DNA of 64,000 bases, taken from the NCBI RefSeq assembly GCF_024700885.2, contig NZ_CP117016.1, one strand, 5' to 3'. The position numbers are program-made. Shown here piece by piece: positions 12,001-15,000 of the stretch (the stretch's first letter is position 1; each line of letters opens with the position of its first letter). This stretch comes from Escherichia coli (GTDB taxonomy: Bacteria > Pseudomonadota > Gammaproteobacteria > Enterobacterales > Enterobacteriaceae).

Positions 12001-15000
12001 CAGATGCATCAAAGCGCCTTGATACGATTTATCAAGCAGCCAAAGCTATGAATAGACTCAATACTGGTAAGCAGTATGCTAGCAGCCTTGTGGATCAGCA
12101 AGTTAATAACTTCCTGAAAGAAAAGGGTAGTCTCGCAAAAATTTATGGAATAGCCTCAAAAGCTGCTGCGGCGGAAGGTATTACAAGCTTATCTGGTCTT
12201 CCTGGTGTAGGTGCAACAGGGGTGATAACGTCAGCATTGATGTCAGGGAAAACAAGCAGGATAAAGGCTGCTGATGCTCTACTGTCTTCTCCTGAGTTTA
12301 AATCAATGCTATTTCGCCTGCAAAACGCACCAGTAGACAGAGCAGAAGTGAGACGCGTAATAGAAAGGAAACTGATGCAATCTGGGGCATTTAAGAGATG
12401 GGAGAAAACCTTATCAACAGATGAAGCAAAAACCATTGCCCGCACGGGGATTATTACATGGCTCGCTAGTGACAGTTAGTCAACTTTGGTTATTTTGCCT
12501 TCTTTTTCTTGATGAACTTTGCATCCATCATCTTTTGATAGCCAAACTAAAAACTTTAAAACCTTAAACACAAGTACGGCTACTGCAATGAAAGCACCAA
12601 TTGCAATTATTGCTAGCGAAATTATTTGCATTGGTGCTTTTAATGCAGGGAAAATAGTGTAAATGATCGCGAAAACAGTAATTATGAGGAACCATCGCTT
12701 CACACCAACCTCCTTAGTTTTGAGCAGGATACCAGATGGTTTGGAGTGAGATAAAGGTTTGTCCACTTTTGGCTATAGCTTTATGTATCCGTGACGGATG
12801 TAATTATCACGGATGCATAAAAATTATATTTTAGTGTAATCTCTGATCGTCTGAATCGTGTAAGAACTCCATGAGACTTTGAACCGGAATTGGTTCTATT
12901 GATGATAATGTGAACACAGGAATATTGAGACTTTTGCAACGCTCAAACACTCCCTTATCATGAGTCCATACCTCGTCAGCATTAATTGCTCTTGCAATTG
13001 CTATTATTTGTCTGTCAAACTTAATTTTGTTTGCTGTACCTTCTGTGCTAATTTTCCTTAATTCTTTTAATGTTGGTATCGATGCGCATTCAATAGCAGC
13101 CAACTCATCAAATGATACAGTTTCGAAGCACGATAACGATTTGATAACATTCAGTTTTTCTTGTTGGTAATCTTTATGGATTCCAACTAAAAACTCCGCC
13201 AATACAGGAGTTGGAACGATGATTGTCCCGTTCTTGTTATCTATTCGATCAACAAGAGCTTCTGCTCTTCTTTTGGCATCTGGAATCTCAGAACCAAGTA
13301 TAGGGTCAGATAATCTATAATCGTGTTCTATATCTGATAGTAGGTATACCAGAATATTGGTATCTAAAATTACTCGCAATTTATCTTCCTCAGAGTCCTA
13401 AGGATTGAATCAACATCGCGTTCCTCGGACCACTGATCTCCAGGAACTTGCTTGATAGCATTAATAGCATCCTTGAGTGATGATTTTTTGAGCAATACAA
13501 ATGAAGTTATTTTTAGTTTCTTTAGCTCCCATTTGTTGTTCTTTTTTTCCCAGCACCCATCTCCTTTAACCCTAATATATTTGAATAGATGGGACCCAAG
13601 AGCTGCCGCCAAATCAGGGGTTGCCTCGCACTTGAATGTTTCACCGTTGGCTCCCTCAATACGCACAGGTATTGAGTTGTCTTTTCCGCCAACACTGTAT
13701 AGCCTTCCTTGAACTTCTGACGTTTTTGTTATGAGTAAAGGGATTGGCTCCTTTTTTACTCGCGGGAATGCGATAATGGTTGAGTGGTTTCGTCCGAGTA
13801 GTTTCGCTGAAAAACCATCATGCTCCAGTAAATTAACAATTTTTTGATACGCGGGTGATTTCTCTTTGGCTGAGAGAGAGGCCCTTGCTATGACAGCGTT
13901 ATAACAAATATCATTATCGACCCATGCATTTAAGTCAGCCGATCCTTCACTTACACAGTCGAAGTGAACAGAATCTGCAGAACCGTATAGATCTACGAGA
14001 GCAGACATATACTTGACCAACTTAGCCATTGACAGCTGGCCAGGGGTGGTTCCGTCAAGTTTTAATGTGAGTCCATTGCTTTTTTTCATTTGTCATCACG
14101 CGAGCCAATATCGATATGGTTAACTGTACGTCATAAGCCTATAACTTACTTTTGCTATAAATATTTTTCAGCGTTTCAAAGACCATCTTCTTAACAACGT
14201 CAGATTGCTCATCCGCGACTCGCTCAGCTTCGTCTCGATGGCCTACAATTGATGATGGCTTTGAGAGAGCATCCTGAACGATTTGTAATAACTCAGAGTT
14301 CATTGACCTTCCGTTAGCCTCTGCTCTTAATTTCAATTTTTCTCTTACTTCCAAAGGCATACGGAAGTTAAAGTGCGGATCGTCTCTAGCCATGCCATCA
14401 CCCCAAGTTAGTGTATTGACATGATAGAAGCACTCTACTATATTCTCAATAGGTCCACCGTGGACCTATATTGTGAGGTAAATATGAAAGGAATGAGCAA
14501 AATGCCGCAGTTCAATTTGCGGTGGCCTAAAGAAGTATTGGATTTGGTGCGCAAGGTAGCTGAAGAGAACGGGCGATCTGTTAACTCTGAGATTTATAAG
14601 CGAGTGATGGACAGCCTGAAGAGAGAGGGGATAACGGTATGAAGTTTATTGAGGTTGATGAGATTGGCTATGAGAATGCACTTGGTAGAGGTAAATCTTT
14701 AGTTAACGTTAATGGCATTGAGTCGATAAGGAGCGGTGAATTTACGGAGATCAGAATGATGTCAGGTGGAATCATTCCTTGCCGTGATTCAGTAGAGTCA
14801 ATCAAAGCAAGAATGAGTGGTCAGTGGCTTTATAACTACAGTGACTTACAAAAACAGTGAAGCCCCAACTGCGGGAACAGTCAGGGCTTCGGGTGTCAGT
14901 AAATCCGTGGAGAAAAACCAACATGAATAGTATAGCAATTTTAGAAGCAGTGAACACCTCTTACGTGCCTTTCAATGGTCAGCAAATTATCACCGCCATG

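Follow-up and report, generated by a model that had tools for sequence, protein, structure and literature searches.

We analysed a stretch of 64,000 nucleotides (nt) from Escherichia coli (contig NZ_CP117016.1, RefSeq assembly GCF_024700885.2), which is called the window below. The subject of this study is a pair of adjacent minus-strand genes in a P22-like prophage, which encode a VapC-like PIN nuclease and a 239-amino-acid (aa) partner protein. The partner gene (13370..14089; WP_000749484) comes first, the PIN gene (12831..13379; WP_001263856, 182 aa) follows, and together they make a module of 1.26 kb. At their junction (13370..13391, minus strand), a GAGGA Shine-Dalgarno sequence (13391-13387) is located 7 nt upstream of the TTG start codon of the PIN gene (13379-13377). 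The stop codon of the partner gene, TAA, is at 13372-13370, and the two genes overlap by 10 nt. A third minus-strand gene (12476..12703; WP_000832789) encodes a 75-aa protein with two transmembrane (TM) segments. It starts with GTG (12703-12701), 5 nt behind an AAGGAGG sequence (12715-12709), and ends at 12476; as described below, it lies outside the module. The locus is 100% identical to the chromosome of E. coli MLI114 (NZ_CP117013), in which RefSeq and its Prokaryotic Genome Annotation Pipeline (PGAP) call the same three coding sequences. In the PGAP annotation of MLI114, WP_000749484 and the 75-aa protein are hypothetical proteins and WP_001263856 is a 'PIN domain-containing protein'. Thus, the coordinates, overlap, Shine-Dalgarno sites and TTG start codon given by an earlier sequence-only reading of the window were confirmed from the sequence and from PGAP. 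The start codon is further supported by an alignment (A1). All enterobacterial partner proteins end with (L/I)NCE, and the corresponding codons AAT-TGC-GAG-TAA overlap the PIN start TTG-CGA-GTA/ATA. Because this conserved NCE terminus is forced by the overlap, it supports TTG as the start of the PIN gene. The catalytic residue D6 is only five codons downstream of this TTG. Pseudomonas partners end with RG, and their genes abut without overlap.

In MLI114, the three coding sequences are flanked by the gene of a 707-aa gp16-type ejection protein and by an Arc-family (Mnt) gene. The ejection-protein neighbour is annotated as 'P22-gp16 family phage DNA ejection protein' in strain TW14425. The mnt gene of the window (14139..14393, minus strand; 84 aa, Arc-like by phrog_795/phrog_3178) lies directly upstream of the pair as context, outside the module. 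It shows 86% DNA identity to P22 mnt, and its PGAP name is 'Arc family DNA-binding protein'. In P22, sieA and orf59a adjoin mnt (P22 SieA paper). The placement of the cassette in the P22 sieA/mnt interval was therefore correct, since the gp16-type and Mnt genes flank the pair in MLI114. The P22 SieA paper does not mention alternative cargo at this locus. The cassette had also been described as AT-rich. This holds for the PIN and 75-aa genes (GC content, 0.35-0.39) but not for most of the partner gene (0.43-0.45); the GC content of the ejection genes ranges from 0.38 to 0.50. A consensus scan detected a Pmnt-like promoter (TTGAGA-17-TATCAT, 10/12; 14421..14449, minus strand) and, facing it, a Pant-like promoter (14416-14444, plus strand). 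Between mnt and the partner gene, this crude scan detected neither a promoter-like nor a terminator-like site on the minus strand. Judging from this arrangement, the pair is probably co-transcribed with mnt in the lysogen, with mnt as the probable source of transcription. In the neighbouring arc region, a mechanical list of open reading frames gives a 73-aa frame at 14421-14642 (plus strand). PGAP places there a 53-aa Arc-family protein (159 nt), then a 73-aa hypothetical protein and then a 300-aa antirepressor. From these PGAP genes, immI (mnt-arc-ant) is therefore considered to be intact in this prophage.

Loci were gathered from the genomes of E. coli and of GTDB species, from viral contigs in IMG/VR, from phages in GenBank and from assembled metagenomes, and the pairing of the two genes was followed across them. 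By tblastn, 69 of the 71 loci gathered first have the partner and PIN genes side by side in one and the same order. An intact PIN gene directly follows the partner gene in 77 of the 79 loci sampled. Pseudomonas phage Pacha is one of the two loci missed by tblastn, and its PIN protein was confirmed by BLASTP: it has 168 aa, and its TTG start codon is one base past the stop codon of the partner gene. At the junction, the frames overlap by 10 nt in every enterobacterial locus, and the Pseudomonas and Marinobacter loci have gaps of 1-3 nt. The pair is conserved as adjacent genes from 100% down to about 25% identity, and this conservation is therefore far beyond chance. PIN homologues with 31-39% identity (Providencia, Binatia and one metagenome lineage) follow a gene of 232-260 aa without a Pfam domain. 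When two of these upstream genes were checked, hhalign gave probabilities of 99.7-99.85% against the partner profile. Two independent inactivations of the PIN gene beside an intact partner gene were found: a 1-nt frameshift in Pseudomonas sp. RGM2987 (locus L015, 6713-7236) and, in Marinobacter fuscus, a PIN gene cut short after about 45 codons (locus L026, 6716-6850). Among the sampled loci, there was none with the PIN gene but without the partner gene. On these comparisons, the partner and PIN genes constitute an obligate, translationally coupled two-gene unit. A separate observation was made in Pantoea latae (NZ_MWUE01000022), in which two diverged copies of the pair (L010 and L013; also IMG/VR L036/L052) lie about 12 kb apart. 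Their partner proteins are 70% and 57% identical to the query. A lambda-type TipJ tail gene is found near one copy, and a CI-type repressor gene precedes the other; the copies probably lie in tandem or adjacent prophages.

The partner protein has no family match in PADLOC-DB v2.0.0 (E ≤ 1), in NCBIfam or in Pfam (even at E ≤ 10). When 60 diverse members of its family were compared with Pfam, only noise was obtained, and single-sequence and profile searches against PDB sequences gave only chance matches. The sole match in PHROGs is phrog_19868, which is full-length and of unknown function. A Foldseek search of AFDB50 returned solely relatives named 'uncharacterized protein'. A word-based search found 58 partner clusters in Enterobacterales and Pseudomonas, and an exhaustive profile search found 1558 representatives (clusters at 50% identity) at E ≤ 0.001, 295 of them at E ≤ 1e-30. 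Almost all members are 235-260 aa long. The AlphaFold2 (AF2) model of the partner, built from 30 sequences, has a predicted local distance difference test score (pLDDT) of 83 and a predicted template-modelling score (pTM) of 0.51. In this model, an alpha/beta domain (residues 1-110, with the order beta-alpha-beta-beta-alpha-alpha-beta-beta) is followed by a beta-barrel (118-199) and two low-confidence helices (205-237). By structure comparison, the barrel is a five-stranded OB fold, and its nearest structures are the single-stranded DNA (ssDNA) binders SSB, RPA, PriB and MCM-N. Across 60 members with 24-42% identity, Y27, G36, G128, G176, W187 and R234 are invariant. L24, H42, G49, S50, D91, F108, G134, G135, A161, R173 and W180 are nearly so. 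R234 sits in the C-terminal helix. The partner is a member of a large family without annotation, the core of which is an OB fold of the SSB/RPA type.

The PIN protein matches Pfam PF01850 (2e-7). Its matches to the VapC models of NCBIfam are weak and far under the cutoffs (27 versus 140 bits), single-sequence and profile searches against PDB sequences gave weak VapC matches, and no PADLOC-DB v2.0.0 family was found at E ≤ 1. With no PADLOC-DB family for either protein, the earlier view that the pair belongs to no named defence system stands. The fold of the PIN protein is VapC-like, its nearest structures are the RNA-cleaving VapC toxins, and many of its homologues carry the NCBI label 'type II toxin-antitoxin system VapC family toxin'. 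The four acidic active-site positions noticed at the outset (D6, E62, D122 and D141) are invariant in 28 homologues with 27-75% identity, and the motifs PTPVLAE and KFDRQIIAIA are also kept. As far as conserved residues can tell, the acidic active site is intact and the nuclease looks competent.

To model the two proteins together, AF2 was run on a partner-PIN fusion with a 30-residue Gly/Ser linker, using 21 paired natural sequences. The pTM value was 0.51 for the partner alone and 0.66 for the fusion, which is higher despite the disordered linker. The increase in pLDDT was concentrated on the C-terminal tail of the partner: from 68 to 93 for residues 201-210, from 58 to 92 for residues 211-220, from 57 to 85 for residues 221-230 and from 49 to 68 for residues 231-239. 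In these models, the tail behaves as expected of a segment that becomes folded when it binds the PIN protein. In many VapB antitoxins, a conserved arginine displaces the catalytic Mg2+ (PMC13373217). We infer that the invariant R234 in the tail, together with the predicted ordering, matches this VapB-type arginine mechanism. The pair had initially been compared with a sensor-plus-effector defence module. In its sequence and model features it looks toxin-antitoxin (TA)-like, as regards the order and coupling of the genes, the invariant arginine near the C-terminus and the two natural PIN knock-outs beside intact partners.

The distribution of the pair is patchy: among 5426 complete E. coli genomes, 32 contain at least 80% of its interval. 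The three genes upstream of the pair were used to sort 64 non-redundant loci. A CI-type repressor gene was found in 27 loci, Mnt in 12, DinI in 6 and others in 19; thus, CI, Mnt or DinI is upstream in 45 of the 64. Of the CI-type repressors, representative proteins either match phrog_4/phrog_6201 ('CI-like repressor') or carry HTH_3, alone or together with Peptidase_S24; DinI matches phrog_189. For example, in a Leclercia lambdoid prophage, a cI-like gene is followed by the pair (with the 10-nt overlap) between the immunity region and exoVIII/recT. In phage Pacha, the pair comes directly after cI, and in a Providencia prophage it comes after a repressor gene with HTH and S24 domains. This placement directly behind a lysogeny repressor gene is seen in at least four unrelated phage backbones. 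On five Pseudomonas chromosomes, the pair is found immediately upstream of the Wadjet gene JetA (E 8e-277), and in Marinobacterium it comes after an Mrr-like nuclease gene. In Marinobacter, it is located between a PDC-M66B gene and the S and M subunit genes of a type I restriction-modification (R-M) system plus SoFic. The PDC-M66B gene, the type I R-M genes and SoFic beside the pair mark a compact defence island in Marinobacter excellens. The PDC-M66B gene itself (locus L020, 5021-5905, minus strand) is a PADLOC candidate, matches phrog_5137 and shows by eye a DUF3037-like N-terminal motif; this domain also occurs in the HipA system DS-6 of DefensePredictor. Judged by gene neighbourhoods, the pair occupies the slot in which temperate phages keep lysogen-expressed immunity cargo, and outside prophages it is found in defence islands. 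This location and the patchy distribution are those of a lysogen-expressed prophage defence 'moron'. As a further observation, the P22-like prophage of MLI114 abuts ybhB-bioA past its tailspike end (locus L001, 13001-13663). We take this neighbourhood to be that of the lambda attB site.

The PIN nuclease had already been flagged by computation before this analysis. In the available part of Table S10 of DefensePredictor (Science 2026, PMC13092281), WP_001263856.1 is a 'predicted novel defense gene' with a mean log-odds of 6.81 (range, 3.9-8.0); the stringent cutoff of that study is 4. It is one of 1,041 unvalidated DefensePredictor clusters, and the present pair is not among the systems cloned or validated there. 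A full-text literature search for WP_000749484 and WP_001263856, with the prophage cargo of Brenes & Laub 2025 outside its range, returned no paper. To the existing flag, this analysis adds the operon structure, the fold of the partner, a hypothesis for the interface and the comparative context.

From these results, we propose that the pair is a prophage-borne, lysogen-expressed, VapBC-like abortive-infection module, the inhibitor or sensor of which comes from a new OB-fold family. We give this proposal a probability of roughly 50%. A defence role, which had been suggested from the sequence, is favoured by the repressor-adjacent loci and by the Wadjet, R-M and Mrr-like neighbours. In the proposed mechanism, the lysogen would transcribe the pair together with the repressor gene, and the partner would bind the PIN protein via its C-terminal helices. 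Like the conserved arginine in many VapB antitoxins, Arg234 would then enter the acidic pocket of the catalytic site and keep the nuclease off. Infection by another phage would lift this inhibition in one of two ways. The OB and N-terminal domains of the partner might bind a ligand made by the phage, namely a single-stranded nucleic acid or a phage protein. Alternatively, a shut-off of host gene expression might deplete the partner. Once released, the PIN nuclease would cut RNA (tRNA or rRNA, as VapC enzymes do), translation would stop and the infection would be aborted. A more specific version can be put forward tentatively, and we consider it possible but doubtful. In this version, the partner is a new infection sensor, and its SSB-like OB barrel and N-terminal domain (Y27, H42 and G49-S50) recognize a product of phage replication and withdraw the Arg234 helices from the PIN active site. 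This product could be a single-stranded nucleic acid (ssDNA or RNA) or a protein of the phage that binds ssDNA or takes part in recombination. If so, the pair would represent a widespread (more than 1500 representative clusters) immune family of OB sensors and PIN effectors, carried by temperate phages of Enterobacterales and Pseudomonas in the rexAB/sieA position.

Several points weigh against the proposal of an abortive-infection module. An OB fold alone is no proof of nucleic-acid binding. Moreover, the OB-loop residues D137, E145, E150 and E155 are acidic, and they are conserved in the close family only, not in distant members. The docking signal consists of the pLDDT and pTM values of a fused single-chain model, and the geometry between R234 and the active site is outside its view. 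The scan for promoters and terminators was a crude consensus search. The overall rate of experimental validation in DefensePredictor is only 45% (PMC13092281). Some copies of the pair are located neither in a prophage nor in a defence island; for example, one is beside an IS1595 transposase gene. In loci L075/L076 (2251-3528), the pair (249 + 175 aa) is located between an ftsI-like penicillin-binding protein gene and murE. This site is inside the dcw (cell-division/cell-wall) cluster, an unusual place for mobile cargo. These sites outside prophages and islands would fit a merely selfish TA module equally well.

The main rivals to an abortive-infection module are an activating two-subunit nuclease and a purely selfish TA module. 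In the former, the OB-fold partner would not inhibit the PIN protein; it would be a required subunit that recognizes the substrate or activates the nuclease, and that binds phage ssDNA or RNA and delivers it to the PIN protein. Defence would depend on both genes, and neither would be toxic alone. The validated E. coli system DS-5 offers a precedent. It consists of a 376-aa PIN protein and a 166-aa DUF5830/AcrIF4-like partner (WP_021513008 and WP_021513009), and deletion of its partner abolishes defence without unleashing toxicity (PMC13092281). The resemblance of the OB barrel of the present partner to SSB, RPA, PriB and MCM-N, its invariant W187 and nearly invariant W180 would suit such a subunit, and the strict co-occurrence of the two genes equally fits an obligate heterocomplex. 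However, the antitoxin-first overlap, the invariant C-terminal arginine and the helices that order upon binding are hallmarks of the VapB type. In addition, loci with a dead PIN gene and an intact partner exist and the reverse was not seen, and the structures nearest to the PIN protein are RNA-cleaving VapC toxins. We therefore regard a two-subunit nuclease as unlikely.

The second rival holds that the pair is an ordinary type II TA (addiction) module with an unusual antitoxin, which stabilizes mobile DNA and has no dedicated anti-phage role. Its TA-like architecture, the asymmetric decay described above, the VapC family label given by NCBI to many homologues and the copies beside the IS1595 transposase gene and inside the dcw cluster can all be read in this way. 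Nevertheless, at least four unrelated phage backbones carry the pair directly behind the lysogeny repressor gene, where exclusion genes of the rexAB and sieA type reside, and chromosomal copies adjoin Wadjet, R-M, SoFic and Mrr-like genes. The high DefensePredictor score also disagrees with a purely selfish element. Furthermore, integrated prophages profit little from post-segregational killing. A purely selfish module thus seems rather improbable to us.

As a further alternative, the pair might be an RNA-processing nuclease complex for prophage housekeeping, which adjusts the lysis-lysogeny transcripts of the phage itself (such as ant or early mRNAs) and does not act on competitors. In many prophages, mnt or cI is the neighbour of the pair and probably shares its transcript. 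However, it is found in only the 32 E. coli genomes mentioned above, is freely swapped with other cargo at the slot and also exists outside prophages in defence islands. Three different repressor types are found upstream, so the pair is not bound to one regulatory circuit. Prophage housekeeping is accordingly a very improbable role.

The 75-aa gene had been considered as a possible membrane component of the system. In E. coli carriers of the pair, homology mostly begins only near window position 12700, just after this small gene. We compared the loci L001-L003, L027-L035 and L042 at this site. Otherwise near-identical P22-like prophages share a common leader with AAGGAGG and GTG (window 12704-12766, minus strand), and at least five unrelated small cassettes follow it. 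The cassettes encode the two-TM protein of 75 aa, a TM protein of 62 aa, two proteins of 109 and 140 aa, and a 129-aa protein whose N-terminus resembles a signal peptide. For example, no gene is annotated at this position in PEC011 and a different 109-aa gene is present in TW14425, although the pair is 99-100% identical. Conversely, phages EC.P3 and E212 have the 75-aa gene with the same gp16 allele and lack the PIN pair. The 75-aa protein belongs to phrog_7294, the function of which is unknown. From this pattern, the 75-aa gene is one allele of a separate hypervariable cargo slot and not a part of the module. Because it is absent or replaced beside a 99-100% identical pair and is found without the pair, the module has two genes. 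The idea that the 75-aa protein joins the pair as a third component, serving as its membrane effector or anchor, could appeal to its location on the same strand 127 nt downstream of the PIN gene, its strong AAGGAGG site and a weak PADLOC match to a 4TM 'Effector' (E 0.052), but it is effectively refuted by these comparisons and by the lambdoid, Pseudomonas, Providencia and chromosomal loci that have the pair without such a neighbour.

If an abortive-infection module is validated, the pair would be a widespread two-gene immune module, and its partner family has no annotation in Pfam or in defence databases. It would also reveal a cargo that many temperate phages keep directly behind their repressor genes. 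Moreover, it would present a new way to silence and release a VapC-type nuclease, by an OB-fold protein instead of a DNA-binding VapB. PIN-based and TA-like defence systems are already common in the field, and the pair is no surprise in that respect. The catalytic and interface residues D6, D122, R234, W180 and W187 can be mutated, and the occurrence of the pair in E. coli allows direct testing.

Finally, we compared the pair with known systems. Shigella and Salmonella VapBC, FitAB and the VapBC arrays of Mycobacterium tuberculosis were taken as examples of VapBC. The toxin fold and the four conserved acidic residues are common to both. The antitoxin-first order with overlapping or abutting frames is also found here (-10 to +3 nt in about 70 loci). 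A further similarity would be the C-terminal helices of the partner, which bear a conserved arginine and are predicted to order against the PIN protein. In contrast, VapB antitoxins have 70-90 aa, so the partner with its 239 aa is about three times as large, and the PIN protein of 182 aa, unlike VapBC toxins, is extended at its C-terminus and contains an insertion at about residues 12-35. VapB antitoxins possess a DNA-binding domain of the RHH, AbrB/SpoVT, Phd/YefM or HTH type at their N-terminus and autoregulate their operon. Neither the partner nor 59 relatives have an RHH, AbrB, Phd or HTH domain in Pfam; the partner has an OB-fold barrel and an extra alpha/beta domain instead. For the pair in its P22-like context, the scan detected no promoter of its own. 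The initial judgement that the pair is not a canonical VapBC system was thus borne out.

Among other PIN systems, DefensePredictor validated DS-3 and DS-5 in E. coli (PMC13092281). DS-3 is a single 340-aa protein and is unrelated to the pair. DS-5 resembles the pair in its two-gene architecture of a PIN protein and an accessory protein. The identity of the two was rejected: BLASTP between the PIN proteins gave E 0.16 over 8 residues, covering only the generic VxLDTNIL motif, and hhalign between the partners gave a probability of 0.06%. The slots of the pair are those of two exclusion loci, P22 sieA, which lies between gene 16 and mnt, and lambda rexAB, which lies 3' of cI. In P22-like prophages the pair occupies the gp16-mnt interval, and in lambdoid, Providencia and Pseudomonas prophages it is directly 3' of a CI-type repressor gene and on the strand of that gene. 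SieA and RexB are membrane proteins, whereas the pair encodes a soluble nuclease and an OB-fold protein. There is no relationship in sequence or fold, and the likeness is positional and functional only. DARNA/PD-T7-3 is a single-protein HEPN tRNase that is activated by ssDNA (bioRxiv 10.64898/2026.02.22.705581). It was rejected as a relative, as its nuclease is HEPN and not PIN and its sensing domain is different. It is similar in that an RNase effector is held off until a nucleic-acid signal of phage replication appears. Because the OB fold of the partner is SSB-like, an ssDNA-type trigger would be plausible for the pair as well.

VapKSC (Chambers et al., EMBO J 2026, PMC13373217) is a three-gene anti-phage system with the GHKL kinase VapK and the STAS antitoxin VapS, which is controlled by phosphorylation. 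The pair is not a VapKSC system: no locus contains a kinase gene or a third conserved gene, the core of the partner is an OB fold, and its N-terminal domain, judged by the order of strands and helices alone, does not read like STAS. By analogy, however, VapKSC would be the closest known system in concept. In VapKSC, a C-terminal helix of the antitoxin approaches the active site, and activation is linked to single-stranded DNA (PMC13373217). Both systems would thus combine a VapC-like PIN toxin with a non-canonical antitoxin that contains a folded, sensor-type domain.

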